This document shows positions 5,329-35,318 of a DNA stretch of 35,318 bases, one piece after another. The DNA is taken from the NCBI GenBank assembly GCA_041666725.1, contig JBAYGL010000002.1, forward strand, positions 1-35,318, in the 5' to 3' direction. The position numbers and the translations under genes are program-made. Each line of letters starts with the position of its first letter. The first letter of the stretch is position 1. This stretch comes from Limisphaerales bacterium. GTDB taxonomy: Bacteria; Verrucomicrobiota; Verrucomicrobiia; Limisphaerales; SXTU01. Below the pieces are notes generated by a model that had not been told where the DNA came from, did no database searches, and saw only the letters and a list, made by a program, of their open reading frames with translations.

Positions 5329-8300
5329 TCATTCCCACGCGCACAGGCTCTCGACGTAAGCCGCCGAGCCGTCACGGAGCCAGCCGTCGAGCTGGGCCTG
5401 ATCCTTGAGCTGCTGGCCGCGGGCGCGGTCCACGACGAGGAAGCGCGAATCAATCTCCGGCAGGGCGGTGAGATCGCCCCAGAGCTTTTCGAACTGCGCG
5501 ACGGGGAAAACGTCTTCCTGCCCGTGGCCCCAGCGCTTCTTCACGTCTTTCGTGGTGATGTAAGTCGGCACCTTCGCGGCAAGCGCACGGATTGCGGCGG
5601 TGATTTTCGTGTCTGCCTCGTCCTGTAGCCGCCGAGGTGAGGAGGCGGATTTCGTGGTTTCACCAAATTCCGCCTCCTGACCTCGGCGGCTACGCAGAAT
5701 GTCTTCGCGCGTCAGACCCAGCGCGCGCAGAAAACCATCCACGTCAATCCATGTTGTCAGCGTGTTGTAATAGCTCAGGCCAAACTCCAGCTCCTCGTGC
5801 GGCATCGCGAGACCCTCGACCAGCCGCGTGCGCCCGTCCACGCGCGCGAGACCACCGCCGCGATCATCGAGCCGGCGCGTGATGACCTCGAAGCTCAAGG
5901 TCGCCCCGCTCGCGAGATGCTGGCCCAGCAACGCCGGGTCGAGGTTTGCGCCGGTGGTGTCAATGTTGTGCAGCAGCAAGGTCTTGAGCTGTGGACGCTC
6001 GCGGAGCAGCGCGGCGAGCGTGCCGTTGCGCAGCAGGTTTGGGACTTCGTAGAAGTGGCCGACGGGGTGGAGGCATTGGAGCGGCAGGTTGTCGCGGTAG
6101 TCCGTGGCTTCGCCGGCGGACTCGGCCCAGCGCAGGAGCGCGGCGCGCAAGGAGTCGCGGACTTTCTGCTGCTGCTCGTCGAGCACCTGCTGCGGCATCT
6201 CCTCCCACGCGAAGCGCAGATCGCGCGCCGTCGGCACCAGACGCAGGCCGACGCTCGCGCCCCGGCTCAGGAGCAGCGAGCCGTCGTAGCCGTAGTTTTG
6301 GTTCGCCCCGAGGAACTCCGAAAGCGGAGCGTGCGTGAGGTAACTCGTCGTGACCACGTGCGGGACGGACTTGCCCGCGAGCCGGGCGACCTTCCGTGAC
6401 TTGGCAAGGTGAACTTCGAGGAACGTGCGGTGCCGTCCGCCGAGTTTGCAGAATGGATGCAGCGACTTCACCACGCCCGCGCCTTGAGTCCAACGGCTGG
6501 CGGCTCCGGCAGCCAGCGTGACCACGGCGGCTTCACCATTGCGGAGAGCGGCGAGCCCGCGCTCCCGTAGTAGCTCGGGCCGCCGGCCCGAGGTTGTAGA
6601 GCGGACTGCCAGTCCGCTTCCTGCGCCCTTTGGCGGTGGCAACGGCTCCGAGGCTGCGGGCTGGCAGCCCGCACTACCTGCCGGGCTGGGAGCCCGGCCT
6701 ACTGTGGCACCGGCTTCGGGCGCAAGCGCGGCACTGCCCCAACCGAGCCGATACGCGCCCTTGGCCAGGCCCGCCTGGGCCGGATTGGCCTCGATGTAGC
6801 GCCCGTAGCGGTCCAGCTCCGCCTCGTTGCGGACGATGTGGTCGAAGGACTCCTCCTGCCACAGCGTGCCGGTGCGACCGAGGCGGCGGTTGATTTCCTT
6901 GGCGGTGTAGGACTTCCAGGTGTGCAGCAGCCTGGTCAGCTCATGGCCCATCACCGGACGCACCAGCAGGTGGACATGGTTGGGCATGATGACAAAGGAG
7001 CCAAGCTCGTAGCGCTGACCGTCGAAGTGCCGCAGACATTCCTCGACCACGTCGGCGATGTCCGAGCGGGTCAGCGCGCAGCTCCCGTGACCTTGGTCCA
7101 GCTCGCGCTCCTGCCATTCCCAGAGAAACTCGGACAGCTCACGTCGTCGCTCTGCGGTCAGGGTGCCGGGATAGCGCTTCAACCACTGCTCCCGCTCTTC
7201 TTGCAACTGGCGAACTTTCGTCTGCGGCAGGGAGTCCGCGAGGCGGAAGGTGACGAAGTAAGTCCCGCCATCCTGCCGCCAGTGCGGCAGGTGCCGGAGG
7301 TAGATGCTGGCGGGGCGTTTGGGGTCGAAGGCGGTGAACCGGGTGCGCCCCACAGACGCGGCCAGTGGCTCGGGCCGCCGGCCCGAAGTTGTAGAGCGGA
7401 CTGCCAGTCCGCCGGGAGGACTGGCGGGCTCAATGGCTGCGGAATGAGCCGCATCAGTTGCGGGCTGGCAGCCCGCGCTACTTGCCGGGCTGGCAGCCCG
7501 GCCTACTACAGCGGGCGGCTCCGCTGCCTCGGGCAGTGTTTGCGTTCGCGCCCCGTCACGCATGTCGGTCACGTCCTCCGGGCGGACGTCTTCGATGACG
7601 CTGTTGGCCGGCAGCCGGTTCTGCGCGAGGCCTATGCGCCCGCTTTTCAAGTCAGCGCGGATGGCTTCGTGGGCTTCGCGGTCGAAGCCATTCGCGGCGA
7701 GCAACTCGTCGAGCGTCTGCGTGCCGGCTCTCTCCTCCTTCAAGCGCGGGAACATCGTGTCGAACAAGGTCTGCACCATGCCGCGCAGCTCGGGCTTGGC
7801 CCGGCAGGCGGCGGCAAACTTGTCCAACTCGGCGCGGCGCGCGGCGGGGAGTTCCTGGCGGTCGGTGCGGAGCAGGCTCGGAACGGTCAGCGCGTAGTAA
7901 CCGGAAGGCATCAGCGCGGCGTCGGTGGCGAGGAGGTCGGCACAGGTGCCGCGCTCGTTGATGGCGTAGTCGAAGACCACCGGCTCCATCGCGAACGGCA
8001 GCGCGTGCTGCAATTCACGCTTTGTCGCGGACATGATTTCCTGCAAGCGCCGCTGGCCCTCGGCCTTTCGCCCGGGCGCGAAGATGAAGCCCATGCCGCC
8101 GCCACTCATGCCGCCGAGCATCCAGAAGCCCCAGAAGTCATCGCCGAACTCGCGACCGACGCGCTCGATGAGCTGCTCGGTGAAGTAAGTCGAGGCCCAC
8201 GGGATGATGGCCTGAATCGGCTCGCGGAAGTTGCGCGTGGTGGCGGCGCCGAGGGCACGGATGTCGCCGGCCTTCAGCGCGGCAAGGACTTCGTCGAGGA

Positions 8301-9792
8301 TGCGAAGCGCGTCCTGGCGTCCGCGCCACTCGGCTTCGCAGCGCAGGAGATACTTCTCCGTGACCATCTCGAGAATCGGCCCGACGTTCTGCGCCATGCC
8401 GCCGTGAACGAGCACGAGGGAGTCTTGCAGTTTGCGGCGCGTCTCGGCGGAGGCGTCGTCGAGGTTGAGGATGCGGTGCTGCGGCATGAGCCGGCCGCGA
8501 GAGACGCCGAACTCGGGGTCGCCTTCGCCGGCGATGACGCCCTCGATGAGCTTCATGCCGGGCCAGACGCCGCCGCTGTCCTGCCAGCCGCCGCCCGAGC
8601 CGCCGAGCCATTCGCCCAGCAACGCGCGGGCGAGCACGATGCGGCGCTCATTCTCCTGCAATTCTCCGGTGAGCGACGAGGCCTGTCCCGTCGCGCGCAT
8701 GAGCACGCTCACGAGCGAGCCGAGCAAGTTCGTGCTGACGGCGAGGCGTGAGCCTTTGGGAATGTCGTTCACACACGAGACGAGTTCCAAACCGCGCCCC
8801 GGCCCGACGATGCGCGCGAGCAGTTCGGCGAGGCTTTGCCCGCTGCCTTCAATGCCCGGCGGCACAACGCCCGCCGCGATGACGGCGGCCTTGAGCAGGC
8901 CGAGGTAATCCTTCGCGAAATCAAACACGTCGGACAGCGCGGTGAGGTCCGCCGTAGCACCCAAGTCCACCGAGGTGAGGCGCAGCACCGGCTCGTCGAG
9001 CACGCGGAGCCACGCGCTGACGGGCGGACGCGGCGCGGTATCGCGGCCGTGGATGCCGAGGTCCACGGAGACGTTGAGCACCTTCGCGCCTTCGGGGAAA
9101 TCCATGCCGAGGAAAAAGATATCGCTCCACGCCGAGTGCGTGAGGTCCATGCGCACGGGCGTCAGCTCGCGGAGAATCGGGTAGGTGCCGTCGGGCGCGC
9201 GCTGAAGCAGCTCGGGGCGGAGGCGGAGTGGCTGGTCGGCGGGATGACCGACGCGGAACATCCACTGGTTGCCGCGCACGCTGCGGACGCTGCGGCGGAC
9301 CTGGTCCGCGAGCGTCTGGAAGGCGAGGCGGTGATAGGCGTTGGCGAGCGCGGAGCAAAGGCCGTCGCTGGGGCCGTGCTTGGCTTGCGCGGCGAGGAAG
9401 GTGTCAATCGCCTCTTCGAAGCGGCGGTGGAGGAGCTGCTCGTAGCCACCGAACGGGATGAGGCCCGTAGCCGCCGAGGTAAGGAGGCGGACCTCGGTGG
9501 CATTGTCAGTCTTAGGAATCCGCCTCCTCACCTCGGCGACTACCAGCTTTGCCGGCAAATGAAACCGATGGATGGCGTAGAGGAAGAAGAGGGCGCGGAC
9601 GCGTTCGTAGAGGTTGTCCGCGCGACGGCGGAAGGCGTCGAGTTCGGCACACTCGGCGAGGAGTTGGGCGGCGGTGAGGTCGCGGCACTGCGCGTCGAGC
9701 GAGGCGTTGCGCCTGGCCGCTTTTCGGGAAGTGATGAGATCAACGAGCATGGGGTGAATTGAGGATTGTCCTACCCTGATTTGCTTCCTCAC
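5329..9792 (-). CDS. Bifunctional sugar kinase-like (fucokinase-type GHMP) / UDPGP-family NDP-sugar pyrophosphorylase, carrying four in-frame REPIN insertions and a nested RAYT
   Basis: A single 1487-codon ORF. The N-terminal module has GHMP/fucokinase signatures: [18 protein letters not shown] (divergent motif II), [12 protein letters not shown], and [12 protein letters not shown] (motif III). The C-terminal module is UDPGP-like: [19 protein letters not shown] ... [29 protein letters not shown] ... [10 protein letters not shown]. The start is either GTG 9792, which overlaps the upstream stop as GTGA, or ATG 9750. The foreign elements inside it are listed as separate features. Confidence 0.75.
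5625..5693. repeat. REPIN-like palindromic element family 2, copy 1 (in frame in the UDPGP module)
   Basis: GTAGCCGCCGAGGTGAGGAGGCGGA (5625..5649) pairs with TCCGCCTCCTGACCTCGGCGGCTAC (5669..5693). This is a 25-nt inverted repeat with 1 mismatch and a 19-nt loop. The total length is 69 nt, which is 23 codons, translated as (R)[23 protein letters not shown]. Confidence 0.75.
6568..6704. repeat. REPIN family 1, copy a (inverted doublet of a ~50-nt REP)
   Basis: Arm A spans 6568/6574..6617 (ctcgggccgccggcccgaggttgtagagcggactgccagtccgc). Arm B spans 6656..6704 (gcgggctggcagcccgcactacctgccgggctgggagcccggcctactg). The reverse complement of A aligns with B along its whole length, and the spacer is 38 nt. 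Each arm contains two short hairpins, for example GCGGACT-GCC-AGTCCGC and GCCGGGCTG-G-GAGCCCGGC. Confidence 0.8.
6736..7353 (-). CDS. REP-associated tyrosine transposase (RAYT, IS200/Y1 HUH family) module, in frame with the host ORF and lacking its own stop codon
   Basis: Host residues 814-1019 read (V/M)[37 protein letters not shown]...[14 protein letters not shown]...[12 protein letters not shown]...[35 protein letters not shown]. The HUH motif HVH is at 6970..6978 and the candidate catalytic Tyr at 6907..6909. A possible own start is GTG at 7351..7353. There is no in-frame stop before the host stop at 5329. Confidence 0.8.
7363..7508. repeat. REPIN family 1, copy b
   Basis: Arm A at 7369..7412 differs from copy a at 1 of 44 positions. 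Arm B at 7460..7508 differs at 4 of 49 positions. The 47-nt spacer is unrelated to that of copy a. The offsets between copies (795 and 804 nt) are both multiples of 3, so both copies are read in the same frame (GRA.SPA.SAGCQPA ... [14 protein letters not shown]). Confidence 0.8.
9467..9543. repeat. REPIN-like palindromic element family 2, copy 2 (in frame in the kinase-like module)
   Basis: GTAGCCGCCGAGGTAAGGAGGCGGA (9467..9491) pairs with TCCGCCTCCTCACCTCGGCGACTAC (9519..9543). The 25-nt arms are the same as in copy 1, with 2 mismatches between arms. The 27-nt loop differs from copy 1. It is translated in a different frame from copy 1, as [26 protein letters not shown]. Confidence 0.75.
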
Positions 9793-31134: not shown

Positions 31135-31153
31135 GAGGGTAAATCCGAACGTT

Positions 31154-31171
31154 GGCAACGCGAACGTTGCC
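31154..31171 (+). terminator. Weak hairpin downstream of pyrF
   Basis: GGCAACG-CGAA-CGTTGCC forms a 7-bp stem, but no U-tract follows. Confidence 0.2.
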
Positions 31172-31301
31172 TCGGTCGCGCATCAACCCGCTCCAAATCA
31201 ACGCACTCGCCGGGGGGCCAGATGTTGCTATGCAATCCGCAGGCCGCTGGTTACTGTCCGCGCCCAGCAAAAACCGTTGTTTCGTTATTGATGGCAAGAC
31301 C

Positions 31302-34300
31302 ATGAAGAAATCGTTGGACAGCAAACTGCCAGTCCTTGGCCGCTGCATGAGGATCGAACCACGGTCCCGTCTGGCGGAGTCGTTTGCTGTCGCCGGCTGG
31401 CGCGTTTTTTTTGCGGCCCTGATCCTGGCATCCTCCATATGCGGTGTAACAGCTGATCCGGGCGACGTGGATCTCACCTTCAACATCGGCACCGGGCCCA
31501 ACGGCGTGGTGTTTGCGACCAAGGTGCGCACCAACGACAACAAGATTTACATCGGTGGTGTTTTCGACATCTACAACGGGAACACCGCCCGGCGCATCGT
31601 GCGGCTGACGCAAACCGGTGCCTTTGACACCTCTTTCACCACCCTTGGCTGCGAGTCCTCGGTGAATGCCATCGTGCTGCAGCCCGATCTCAAGTGCATC
31701 ATTGGCGGCGATTTCACCACCGTCGGAAGCACCACCACCCGGCGGCTGGCCCGTCTGAACGACAACGGATCGCTCGACACCACCTTCACGGCCAACATGG
31801 GCAACGGCCCGGACAACGGCGTGGACGCGCTGGCGGTGCAGGGTGACGGCAAGCTGCTGATCGGCGGACGCTTTTTGAACTTCGACGGCACCGGGCGAGT
31901 GCGCCTGGCCCGGCTCAATGCGGACGGTTCGCTGGACACGGGATTTGTGCCGGGGCTGGGCCCGAACCAGCCGGTGGTGTCCATCAACGTTCAGTTGGAT
32001 GGGAAAATCCTGGTGTGCGGCAACTTCACCTCCTTCAACGGCGTTGCCCGGTCCGGCATTGTGAGATTGCTGGCGGACGGCTCGGTGGATACCTCGTTTG
32101 ATCCCGGCACGGGCGCGTCCGGACTGGTCAACGGCGCGATCATCCAGGGCGACGGCAAGATCATCGTTTACGGCGGGTTCACCGCGTTCAACGGCCAGGC
32201 CCGGGTGAAGATTGTCCGGCTTCTTGCCAATGGGACGATTGACACGGCCTACGCCCAGAACACGGCCATCAACTCGGACATCCGCGATGCCCAGCTTCTG
32301 CCCAGCGGCAAGCTGCTCATCGTGGGCGTGTTCTTCGACATCAACGGCATCTCCCGCCGCAGCGTCGCACGGCTGGATGTCAATGGCGCCCATGACACGT
32401 TGTTCAACCCTGGCACCGGTGCGGGCTATCTCGACAGCCTCGCCAACGCCGCCGTCAACGCCAGCGGCCTGGACAGCAACGCCAGGCTGGTGGTCGTCGG
32501 CGAGTTCCGGCAGTTCAACGACATCCCCTTCAACTTCATCACCCGCGTCAACACCGCCGACCCCACGCCACCGCTGGTCATCACGCATCCCGTGGATGTG
32601 TTCATCCCGACCGGATCGAACGCGACCTTCTCCGTCACCGCCAGCGGCACGGAGCCGTTGAGCTACCAGTGGCGCTTCGGCGTCGTGAATCTCGCCGGGG
32701 CCACGAACGCGTCCGTGACCATCACCAACGCGCAGGCCGGCAACGTCGGCAATTATTCGGTGGTCGTGGCGAACACCGCCGGTTCCGCCACCAGCTCGAA
32801 CGCGAGCCTCACGCTCGGCACGTTTCCGTTCTTCGTCACGCCGCCCGCGTCGCAGACGAACGTCGTGGGGGCGAACACGAACTTCACCGTGGTCGCGGGC
32901 GGGACCGCGCCGTTGTTCTATCAATGGCTTTTCAATGGCGCGGTGCTGGCCAACCAGACCAACGCGACGCTCAACCTGACCAACATCCAGCTCACCAACG
33001 GCGGGCCTTACACCATCATCGTTTCGAACTTGTTTGGTGCGGTGACGAACTCCGCGACGCTCACTGTGGCCGCGCCGCCGGCCATCGTCGCCGGTTCCAA
33101 CGGCGGCGGGGCGGATGGCCAGCCGCAGTCGCTCACGGTCGTGCAGGGGCAGAACGCCACGTTCAGCGTCAACGCCATCGGCAGCGCGCCGCTCACATAC
33201 CAGTGGCGCTACGGGGGCGCGAACATCACCGGCGCGACCAACACCTCGGTCACGCTGACCAACGTGCTTGCGGCGCAGGCGGGCCTTTACTCCGTCGTCA
33301 TCGGCAATTCCTTCGGCAACGTGACCAGCTCCAACGCCACGCTCACCGTGTTGCTGCCGCCCACCATCATCGTGCAGCCGGTGTCGCAGACCATCACGCA
33401 AGGCGCGACACTCAACCTCTCCGTCACCGCCACCGGCTCGCCGACGCTCACGTATCAGTGGAGCCTGAACGGCACGGCCATCCCCGGCGCGACCGCCGCG
33501 GCGCTCTCGCTCTTCAACGCGCAGGAAAGCTTGGAGGGCAACTATGTCTGCTTGGTGACGAACCCCTATGGCACCGCGACGAGCGTGGTGGCGGTCGTAA
33601 CGATCCAATCGCCGCCCGTCATTTACGCGCCTGGCCAGCCCCAGCCGCAGACGGTCATCCAGGGCAGCAACGCGACCTTCAGCGTGAGCGCCGTTGGCGA
33701 CCTGCCGTTCACGTATCAGTGGCGGTTCGGCGGAACGAACATCGCCGGTGCGACCAACAACCCGCTCGTGCTGACCGCCGTGCAGACCAACCAGGCCGGC
33801 AACTATTCCGTCGTCGTGAGCAACGCGTTCGGCTTCACCATCAGCTCCAACGCGCTGCTCACCGTCCGCGTGCCTCCCTTCATCATCACGCAGCCGACAC
33901 CGGCGAATCAGACCGTGGTGGCCGGCAGCAACGCGACCATCACGGTCGTCGCCGGCGGCGATCCGACGCTGGCATACCAGTGGCGGCTCAACGGCACGGC
34001 CATCACGGGCGCGACCAATGCGACGCTGACGCTGACCGCCGTGCAGACGAACCAACTTGGCCTCTACTCCGTTGTCGTCAGCAATCCCTACGGCACGGTC
34101 ACGAGCGGCAACGCCACGCTGGATGTGAAGACCGCGCCGTTCGTCGTCACGCAGCCGCAGTCGCTCGCGGTGTTGCAGGGCAGCCCCGCCGCCTTCTCCG
34201 TCACGGCGGGCGGCGACGGGCCGTTCACTTACCAGTGGCGCTTCGGCGGGACGGACATTGCCGGCGCGAACACCGCCGCTTTCGGGCTGGCCAGCGCGTT

Positions 34301-35318
34301 CACGACGAATGCCGGCCTTTATTCCGTGCTCATCACCAGCGCCTACGGCTCGGTCGCCAGCTCGAACGCGACGCTCACGGTGAACGTGCCGCCCACCATT
34401 GTTGTGCCCCCGGTTTCGCAGACCGTCGTGGCGGGCAGCAACGCGACTTTCACCGTCACCGCGACGGGCGACGCGCCTCTCAGCTACCAGTGGCGCTTCG
34501 GCGGCACGGCCATCACGGGCGCGACCAGCGCGACGCTCACCCTGGCCGCCGTGCAGGCGGCGCAGGCCGGGGATTACGCCGTCGTGGTCACAAATCCGTT
34601 CGGCACCGCCACGAGCACGAATGCGACGCTCACGCTGAAGACACCGCCGTTCGTGGCGACGCAGCCGCAGTCATTGACCGTGCTGAAGGGGACCAATGCC
34701 TCCTTCTCGGTCACGGCGGGCGGCGACGGTCCGTTCACCTACCAGTGGCGCTTTGGCGGAACCATCATCACGGACGCGACCAATGCGACGGTCACGTTGA
34801 CAAACGTCCAGACCAACCAGGCCGGCCTTTACTCGGTGCTCATCACCAGCCTCTACGGCTCCGTGACGAGTTCGAACGCTACGCTCACGGTGCTTGACCC
34901 GCCGGTCATCGTTGTTCAACCCGTGTCCGCTTCAGCGCTGGCAGGGGAGACGGTCGCCTTCAGCGTGGTTGCCACCGGGCGGCCCACGCTGCTCTATCAA
35001 TGGTGCAAGAACGGCGTGGACATCGCCGGCGCGACCAACACCACGCTGACGCTCACAAACGTCTCGGCCGCGGATGTGGCGGACTACTGCGTGAAGGTGA
35101 CGAATTCCGACGGTTCCGTCACCAGCGTGAACGCGACCTTCACGTTGTCGTTGCGGACACTTCAAGTCGTCACGACGCAGACGACGAATCTGACGGCGGG
35201 CGCGGCGGTTTCCGTGCCGGTGGCGCTGCTGGCCGAAGGGGGCGAACATCGCGTGACAGGCAGTGTTGCCTACGACACCAACAAGCTCGCGTTCGTCAGC
35301 GTGACCACCTCCGCAGCC
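31302..35318 (+). CDS. Giant surface protein: delta-60 (beta-propeller type) repeats, 10 tandem Ig-like domains, and the start of a cohesin-like domain; 3' end beyond the window
   Basis: Absent from the ORF track because it has no stop in the window. Manual translation from ATG 31302 (alternative ATG 31347) stays open to 35318 (1339 codons). After the hydrophobic leader ...FFAALILASSICGVTA come 7 repeats of the type (L/V)ARL..DGS(L/V)DT.F ... GDGK(I/L)(L/I)(I/V)GG.F. These are followed by 10 units of ~86 aa with ..Y(Q)W(R/L)(F/L)(G/N)G..I.GAT...L.L..V....G.Y.V(V/L)(V/I).N..G..TS..A.LTV. The tail AVSVPVALLAEGGEHRVTGSVAYDTNKLAFVSV is cohesin-like. Confidence 0.85.
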   Translation, partial: MKKSLDSKLPVLGRCMRIEPRSRLAESFAVAGWRVFFAALILASSICGVTADPGDVDLTFNIGTGPNGVVFATKVRTNDNKIYIGGVFDIYNGNTARRIVRLTQTGAFDTSFTTLGCESSVNAIVLQPDLKCIIGGDFTTVGSTTTRRLARLNDNGSLDTTFTANMGNGPDNGVDALAVQGDGKLLIGGRFLNFDGTGRVRLARLNADGSLDTGFVPGLGPNQPVVSINVQLDGKILVCGNFTSFNGVARSGIVRLLADGSVDTSFDPGTGASGLVNGAIIQGDGKIIVYGGFTAFNGQARVKIVRLLANGTIDTAYAQNTAINSDIRDAQLLPSGKLLIVGVFFDINGISRRSVARLDVNGAHDTLFNPGTGAGYLDSLANAAVNASGLDSNARLVVVGEFRQFNDIPFNFITRVNTADPTPPLVITHPVDVFIPTGSNATFSVTASGTEPLSYQWRFGVVNLAGATNASVTITNAQAGNVGNYSVVVANTAGSATSSNASLTLGTFPFFVTPPASQTNVVGANTNFTVVAGGTAPLFYQWLFNGAVLANQTNATLNLTNIQLTNGGPYTIIVSNLFGAVTNSATLTVAAPPAIVAGSNGGGADGQPQSLTVVQGQNATFSVNAIGSAPLTYQWRYGGANITGATNTSVTLTNVLAAQAGLYSVVIGNSFGNVTSSNATLTVLLPPTIIVQPVSQTITQGATLNLSVTATGSPTLTYQWSLNGTAIPGATAAALSLFNAQESLEGNYVCLVTNPYGTATSVVAVVTIQSPPVIYAPGQPQPQTVIQGSNATFSVSAVGDLPFTYQWRFGGTNIAGATNNPLVLTAVQTNQAGNYSVVVSNAFGFTISSNALLTVRVPPFIITQPTPANQTVVAGSNATITVVAGGDPTLAYQWRLNGTAITGATNATLTLTAVQTNQLGLYSVVVSNPYGTVTSGNATLDVKTAPFVVTQPQSLAVLQGSPAAFSVTAGGDGPFTYQWRFGGTDIAGANTAAFGLASAFTTNAGLYSVLITSAYGSVASSNATLTVNVPPTIVVPPVSQTVVAGSNATFTVTATGDAPLSYQWRFGGTAITGATSATLTLAAVQAAQAGDYAVVVTNPFGTATSTNATLTLKTPPFVATQPQSLTVLKGTNASFSVTAGGDGPFTYQWRFGGTIITDATNATVTLTNVQTNQAGLYSVLITSLYGSVTSSNATLTVLDPPVIVVQPVSASALAGETVAFSVVATGRPTLLYQWCKNGVDIAGATNTTLTLTNVSAADVADYCVKVTNSDGSVTSVNATFTLSLRTLQVVTTQTTNLTAGAAVSVPVALLAEGGEHRVTGSVAYDTNKLAFVSVTTSAA
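32566..35150 (+). repeat. Tandem coding repeat array (10 Ig-like domain units, period ~255-280 bp)
   Basis: The Y-Q-W core recurs near 32664, 32920, 33198, 33452, 33712, 33975, 34230, 34485, 34738 and 34995. Units 5-9 alternate between two subtypes, giving a two-domain super-repeat. Confidence 0.8.

Follow-up and report, generated by a model that had tools for sequence, protein, structure and literature searches.

In Rickettsia, palindromic repeats reportedly reside in frame within functional protein-coding genes, as described by Ogata and colleagues in 2000. Di Nocera, De Gregorio and Rocco (2013, BMC Genomics 14:522, PMC3733652) found GTAG repetitive extragenic palindromic (REP) sequences inside open reading frames (ORFs), with the largest number in the verrucomicrobium Opitutus terrae. 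In that report, intragenic inverted dimers of GTAG REPs encode 20-30 amino acids and some ORFs hold two inserts; variable spacers are typical of the tail-to-tail dimers, REP termini often supply the TAG stop codon of flanking ORFs, and the genes of REP-associated tyrosine transposases (RAYTs) are flanked by GTAG repeats. The phenomenon itself, in-frame GTAG REP pairs in this phylum, has been known since that publication in 2013. Here, we describe a palindrome of 77 nucleotides (nt) at positions 9467-9543 of a 35,318-nt stretch of DNA from a Limisphaerales bacterium of the Verrucomicrobiota (contig JBAYGL010000002.1 of assembly GCA_041666725.1, positions 1 to 35,318; the whole stretch is called the window hereafter). 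It is very probably one copy of a dispersed, non-autonomous family of the REP or REPIN (REP doublet forming a hairpin) type, in which two GTAG-headed hairpins lie tail to tail with a variable spacer between them. We refer to this family as family 2.

A repeat search of the window resolved the element into arms of 25 nt each that are 92% complementary and lie 27 nt apart, at the same coordinates where a preliminary description of this DNA had placed 25-nt arms and a 27-nt loop. The left arm (9467-9491, plus strand) consists of the GTAG head and a 5-bp stem, CCGCC/GGCGG, with the 10-nt loop GAGGTAAGGA. The spacer (9492-9518, 27 nt) separates it from the inverted right arm (9519-9543, minus strand), which reads GTAGTCGCCGAGGTGAGGAGGCGGA on the minus strand and has two mismatches to the left arm (arm sequences of the element, GTAGCCGCCGAGGTAAGGAGGCGGA and TCCGCCTCCTCACCTCGGCGACTAC). 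When up to three mismatches were allowed, the 25-mer arm occurred four times in the window, compared with 0.00 expected from 100 dinucleotide-preserving shuffles. The 77-mer folded into a single long DNA hairpin of -28.2 kcal/mol (z = -8.15), which was equalled by none of 200 shuffles, and a lone arm folded into the GTAG head with the 5-bp stem and the 10-nt loop, in agreement with the earlier view of the arm as GTAG plus a CCGCC-N10-GGCGG hairpin. With its heads outward, the doublet is by its layout a tail-to-tail dimer, and the arm architecture is that of a GTAG REP. Two other kinds of palindrome were considered and rejected, namely an integron attC site, since the element has a GTAG head and no RYYYAAC/GTTRRRY core, and a plain terminator, since it has no T run and lies inside an ORF. 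An Rfam search of the element gave only sub-threshold matches to microRNA precursors, of the generic long-hairpin type, and no known RNA family.

The element sits inside a minus-strand ORF (5329-9792), to which it adds 26 amino acids (residues 84-109). On this coding strand, the right arm is translated as VVAEVRRR, the spacer as ...IPKTDNATE... and the left arm as ...VRLLTSAAT; at a length of 77 nt, the 26 codons require one additional base. Based on the six-frame translation, the frame in use is the only coding-strand frame that is open across the element, as had been stated in the preliminary description with reference to the TAG of the head and the TAA in the loop. The second frame is blocked by the TAG of the head and a TGA, and the third by a TAA and a TGA within the spacer. 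In metatranscriptome runs, fragments of related genes and other copies of the family were present, and no contig spanned the 9467-9543 element.

The same ORF contains a second family-2 copy at 5625-5693 (69 nt with a 19-nt spacer, residues 1367-1390), and these two are the copies present in the window. The second copy is read in a different register, gives 24 residues and folds with z = -11.1. In the source metagenome run, contig depth rose from ~6.5 to 52 over the left arm of the 9467-9543 element, and at least five contigs have this arm in common and then diverge into other flanks. We further scanned one genome per species with an exact pattern and obtained at least 112 stretches with family 2, which were analyzed together with the window as 113 sequences. 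Nearly all of them belong to metagenome-assembled genomes (MAGs) of Verrucomicrobiota, assigned to Limisphaerales, Pedosphaera or 'Verrucomicrobiales'. As such, the search for other copies that the preliminary description had proposed yielded them in the same gene, in relatives and in the source metagenome, in genic as well as intergenic positions. Among the matches listed, on which the counts of contigs, doublets, spacers and gene contexts given here and below are based, many contigs of the same assembly carried the family (e.g., SXTU01, CALQJI02, CALBIE01 and JBEBFV01). In the 113 sequences, paired elements numbered 94, with modal lengths of 70 and 76 nt, and single arms 49, and the spacers between arms ranged from 10 to 93 nt with modes of 20 and 26 and were unrelated in sequence from copy to copy. 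Some of the MAG records with family 2 (L008, L011, L016, L025, L075 and others) bear titles such as Klebsiella pneumoniae, Akkermansia muciniphila and Bifidobacterium sp., and Chitinophaga pinensis, Haliangiales and Limnocylindria are further odd titles; these records are probably mislabelled or contaminated bins.

The arm consensus, built from 188 arms, was 95-99% conserved at almost every position, and the head at arm positions 1-4 was conserved as G 97%, T 95%, A 98% and G 99%. To examine the stem, we fixed only the GTAG head and the loop GA[GC]GT.A[GC]GA and left both 5-nt stem halves free. Under these conditions, 299 of 333 arms had a fully paired stem (5/5), which again fits the hairpin structure originally assigned to the arm. 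The fully paired stems were of 13 types, with CCGCC/GGCGG in 249 arms, CCACC/GGTGG in 11, CCGCT/AGCGG in 6, CCCCC/GGGGG in 5, GAGTC/GACTC in 4, GAGAC/GTCTC in 3, CAGCC/GGCTG in 2 and others, and they include double compensatory changes (e.g., CCACC/GGTGG, CCGCT/AGCGG, CCCCC/GGGGG, GAGTC/GACTC and GAGAC/GTCTC). Copies in two orthologues of the host protein, P0120 and P0121, at the position of the 5625-5693 element (site 4 hereafter), combine CCACC/GGTGG in one arm with CCGCC/GGCGG in the other. This keeps the small hairpin intact at the cost of arm-to-arm pairing. Arm position 15, the N of GGT-N-AGG, was occupied by G in 94, A in 54, C in 37 and T in 3 of the 188 arms. A T at this position would make a TAG in the second translatable register (xGT AGC CGC CGA GGT TAG), and the bias could stem from RAYT recognition or from selection for coding compatibility.

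Coding context was called by a home-made codon-bias log-odds score, trained on long ORFs of the family-2 loci, together with a Pfam check on 10 ORFs. For the protein encoded by 5329-9792 (P0001), the true frame scored +0.30 per codon, and none of the five others exceeded +0.03. The tabulation of genic and intergenic copies suggested in the preliminary description was carried out on 86 evaluable doublets: 25 (~29%) were coding-like on both sides in one uninterrupted frame, 8 provided the TAG stop of an adjoining coding-like ORF, 4 showed read-through near a gene end and 49 looked intergenic. Most copies are thus extragenic, but genic ones make up an unusually large share. Each of the 25 in-frame copies is 96 residues or more away from both ends of its ORF. 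Their 5' arm is used in two registers, GTA GCC... giving VAAEVRRR and xGT AGC... giving xSRRGxEA, and their 3' arm in three, one of which gives PPPHLGGY; tabulated by frame, as had also been suggested, all six 5'/3' combinations were present and the TAG register occurred in none of the 25. According to Pfam, eight of the 10 host ORFs checked were real enzymes, in which the domains span the insert, are interrupted by it or lie next to it (including molybdopterin oxidoreductase, class I/II aminotransferase, carbamoyltransferase, P-type ATPase, sulfatase, DUF6298, DUF7133 and DUF455). Considering that all six register combinations are used and that the hosts are real enzymes, the DNA, and not the peptide, is the conserved unit, and the peptides are its by-products.

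A profile of the RAYT domains found in homologues of P0001 gave a weak match in a relative (locus L108), which identified a candidate cognate RAYT. The L108 ORF (positions 6418-7020 of that locus, 200 residues) has an HUH-type motif (PDHLHML) and a Y...NP motif. It matched the NCBIfam model NF047646 (REP-associated tyrosine transposase) with E = 4e-18 over positions 4-145 of 146, at 65.6 bits and thus below the curated cut-off of 80, and the PDB structure 4er8 (TnpA-REP) with E = 4e-4, while Pfam at E <= 0.01 did not recognize it. Family-2 doublets at 6375-6453 and 7017-7092 bracket the gene, which terminates at the TAG supplied by the downstream REP head. Read from the first start codon, the protein would begin within the upstream REP arm (…PPPHVGGY…). 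A metagenome scan with the L108 protein gave 42 loci encoding relatives that are 47-77% identical to it. Family-2 arms lay within 250 nt of the RAYT gene in 34 of the 42 loci, and on both sides in 19 of the 28 loci having both flanks; as a background, only three arms were present in 58.6 kb lying more than 400 nt from RAYT genes. Of the eight loci without arms, four encode the most diverged RAYTs (47-52% identical) and four are short or partial matches. By their positions in these contigs, family-2 arms are tightly and specifically associated with a distinct RAYT clade. The RAYT encoded in the window is of a different clade and has no close relative among the 112 family-2 loci in tblastn and profile searches, and the window has no RAYT of the L108 clade. 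This bears out two statements of the preliminary description, that the element represents a second REPIN-like family distinct from the REPs of the in-window RAYT and that its matching RAYT is not in the window; the cognate clade was seen outside it, in L108 and the metagenome loci.

The host gene (5329-9792, minus strand), which acts in sugar activation, encodes P0001, a fusion of 1487 residues between a fucokinase-like module, with profile matches to the Fkp structures 5yys and 9iip, and a C-terminal UDPGP-type pyrophosphorylase. Structures cover the fucokinase-like core (profile positions 180-392 in the numbering of the orthologue P0004) and the UDPGP core of this protein family, and the insertion site is outside of both. 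The insert at residues 84-109 is placed between the invariant motifs RFHLP and LIPF.GY (site 1), and the fucokinase-aligned stretch begins ~85 residues past it. The preliminary description had placed it in the kinase-like module; it is N-terminal to the stretch that aligns with the solved fucokinase structures. The amino-acid identity between P0001 and its orthologues was 91-94%, well above the 70-75% identity at 4-fold degenerate sites, and as such the gene is under purifying selection. The linker between the two modules of P0001 holds, at ~6568-7508, a RAYT (Y1_Tnp) cassette that is in frame and belongs to a different REP family. This cassette carries its own flanking REP doublets; it is absent from the closest orthologues (91-95% identical by best local alignment) and present in most of those that are 62-67% identical.

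Homologues of P0001 are plentiful in Verrucomicrobiota, and the orthologue comparison, another step proposed earlier, showed the same element, other repeats or a short linker at site 1. The length from RFHLP to LIPF.GY varied from 8 to 30 residues. Site 1 holds a family-2 element in P0004, P0005 and P0008 (each 77 nt with a 27-nt spacer) and, with a shorter spacer, in P0036, P0055 and P0120. In P0002, P0010, P0018 and P0022, it is occupied by a sister REP family with the stem GAGCC/GGCTC (VGDDVRSL...SLLTSAPT), and in P0027 and P0064 by a family-1 REP peptide, while most orthologues have unrelated sequence or merely 8-15 residues there. Two close orthologues have in-frame tandem heptamers in place of a REP at the same site, as (CCCATCT)n, read PISHLPSPISS, in P0006 (L116:1501-4914) and as (CATTC[GC]T)n, read IRHSSFLIRHS, in P0009 (L117:1501-4842). 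Since a 7-nt unit stays in frame only as multiples of three, the site-1 loop may be contingency-like in length. Site 4, in the loop LTREDIL...KITAAIR, allowed a clean comparison of filled (P0001, P0004, P0005 and P0006) and empty (P0008, P0009 and P0010) orthologues. The difference was exactly 24 codons, and the insertion of 72 nt is made up of the 69-nt element and 3 nt.

With these comparisons at hand, we find it hardly credible that selection for function shaped the 26 residues as native protein sequence, with the palindromic DNA incidental. In favor of this view, the host gene is intact, is under purifying selection and has the segment in its translated frame, and similar site-1 peptides are found in the distant P0036, P0055 and P0120; but DNA of the identical type also lies between genes and within unrelated ones, in other frames and with unrelated peptides, and the site is filled by unrelated sequence or by a linker of 8-15 residues in most orthologues. 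The preliminary description had named distant orthologues that carry the same peptide without the palindromic DNA as a sign of native sequence, whereas distant orthologues with a similar peptide (P0120) retain the palindromic signature. It is also very unlikely that the element is a miniature inverted-repeat transposable element (MITE) from a conventional insertion sequence, moved through its terminal inverted repeats by a DDE transposase with no RAYT involved. Terminal inverted repeats of 25 nt and a MITE-like size of 60-90 nt would suit such an origin, but the GTAG head is conserved, the hairpin within the arm covaries independently of arm-to-arm pairing, 49 arms exist singly, no target-site duplication is evident and the arms are tightly and specifically tied to a RAYT clade.

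Another explanation, to which we give a limited chance, is that the element is maintained under a dual constraint rather than carried as a neutral passenger: what keeps the hairpin arms inside the gene would be selection on the structure of the DNA or RNA (e.g., for mRNA stability or ribosome pausing) or homogenisation with the genomic pool, driven by the RAYT or by gene conversion, and the two loops would be preferred landing pads that are refilled repeatedly. Among orthologous in-gene copies, arms were 94% identical at site 1 and 88% at site 4, compared with 73% and 41% for the spacers and 70-77% for the 4-fold sites. With one identical pair as the exception, the site-1 spacers of these copies were 63-70% identical, roughly as expected at the neutral rate. 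The compensated stem confined to a single arm in P0120 and P0121 points in the same direction, as does the reuse of the sites. In a FastTree phylogeny of 121 orthologues, from which the insert columns were excluded, family-2 presence required at least four changes at site 1 and at least seven at site 4, and the carriers fall in clades only ~65-76% identical in protein; elsewhere, site 1 holds the sister REP family (P0010) or the family-1 peptide (P0027). In addition, the site-1 elements of P0005 (L114) and P0008 (L115) differ at 1 of 77 nt and have identical spacers in genes that are 88% identical in DNA, a pattern that points to a recent event of recombination or gene conversion limited to the element. 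However, selection on the encoded peptide or recent re-insertion could partly explain the arm conservation, the change counts are soft because the closest clade is poorly resolved in the tree, the flank logo gave no target motif, and no RNA contig runs across the element. Repeated insertion at two permissive loops is compatible with the arm conservation, the site reuse and the near-identity of the P0005 and P0008 elements, and so is retention combined with homogenisation from the genomic pool or with hairpin selection. Extended to the in-gene REP doublets of Limisphaerales, the proposal that arms are kept by RAYT-linked homogenisation or hairpin selection, and that the RFHLP...LIPF and LTREDIL...KITAAIR loops are refilled by family 2 and sister REP families, likewise seems rather improbable. 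If true, conserved enzymes would regularly gain variation in loop length from REP traffic.

We favor the reading of the 77-nt palindrome as a copy of a dispersed REP/REPIN-type family, and several points weigh against it. No transposition of family 2 has been observed, and its copy number and cognate RAYT in the window's own organism are inferred from relatives and from the source metagenome. The flank logo shows no target-site consensus other than C at -1 in 50% of ends. None of the orthologues is cleanly empty at site 1, where the short linkers seen are unrelated sequence, so the insertion boundaries there are approximate. Furthermore, arm identity is far above that of the 4-fold sites, which a purely neutral passenger would not show. 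In the AlphaFold2 model of P0004, an orthologue that lacks the RAYT cassette, built from a 40-sequence alignment, the mean predicted local distance difference test score (pLDDT) was 53 and the predicted template modelling score (pTM) 0.41; the stretch with the insert falls below pLDDT 50 together with half of the protein, and a surface loop is not demonstrable from this model.

By analogy with what has been proposed for E. coli TnpA-REP, the RAYT of the associated clade would bind GTAG and the hairpin on single-stranded DNA and mobilise or multiply the doublets. In-gene copies would then persist only in places that leave the frame open and can accommodate an additional loop in the protein. At 9467-9543, the tolerant place would be the length-variable loop between RFHLP and LIPF.GY, and the 26 residues would be a by-product of the DNA rather than an evolved feature of the protein.

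Two further observations concern repeats in other places. In P0002, P0022, P0027, P0028, P0032 and P0036, a third loop, after MRATGQA, contains Ala/Pro/Gly-rich inserts of 30-60 residues that resemble translated REPs of other families (e.g., SGAGVPPA...GGTPAPL), and the window protein has no insert there. Elsewhere in the window, a 3'-open ORF (31152-35318) has, at 32586-34937, a tandem array of at least seven diverged repeats of ~255 nt (85 amino acids), 62-72% identical, and it resembles a large repeat-rich surface or secreted protein.

Family 2 extends the short list of bacterial mobile palindromes inside functional genes, with the consensus, the covarying stem, the RAYT clade, the reading frames and the orthologue history in hand. 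With its conserved 10-nt loop and swappable 5-bp stem, it provides material for testing RAYT-REP recognition, and it lets one ask whether hairpins inside genes are actively kept or simply tolerated. In annotation, VAAEVRRR...RLLTSAAT, xSRRGxEA...SASSPRRL and ...PPPHLGGY should be taken as marks of this DNA element and not as protein motifs.

Compared with the REPIN-RAYT systems of Pseudomonas and Enterobacteria (Bertels & Rainey 2011, PMC3116915; E. coli TnpA-REP 4ER8, PMC3479197), family 2 has in common the inverted REP pair as the unit, a RAYT gene flanked by its own REPs and GTAG plus a hairpin as the recognised module, and the L108 RAYT matches 4er8 and NF047646. While classical REPINs are essentially extragenic, ~29% of the evaluable family-2 copies are translated in frame; moreover, family-2 spacers are unrelated between copies, and mobility and catalysis in family 2 are putative. 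With the Rickettsia palindromic elements (RPEs), the analogy drawn in the preliminary description, family 2 shares its in-frame residence and an added peptide that is a by-product of DNA. It differs in having a GTAG rather than a CGTC head, an associated RAYT clade and hosts in a free-living phylum; the intragenic RPE-4 and RPE-6 of R. conorii are CGTC-tagged, no dedicated transposase is known for CGTC repeats, and RPE-1 is longer (PMC3733652). As in-frame palindromes, the Rickettsia elements are a fair comparison, but the GTAG REP dimers of Opitutus terrae are closer (PMC3733652). None of four family-2 peptide signatures (TSAAT, VRRR, PRRL and HLGGY) is present in the supplementary list of REP-encoded peptides of that paper, in which the peptides of O. 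terrae (with the intragenic families GTAG-17 to GTAG-20) are of other types (e.g., VGPALAAG and GTGVPPV), and thus family 2 itself appears to be undescribed there. Both sets of elements come from the same phylum, consist of GTAG and a short stem-loop, form inverted dimers inside ORFs with up to two inserts in one ORF, are arranged tail to tail with variable spacers, supply the TAG of their heads as ORF stops and flank RAYT genes. In contrast with the O. terrae repeats, family 2 has a different sequence and is hosted by Limisphaerales and Pedosphaera rather than Opitutus, and for this family a cognate RAYT clade, stem covariation and an orthologue history are documented.

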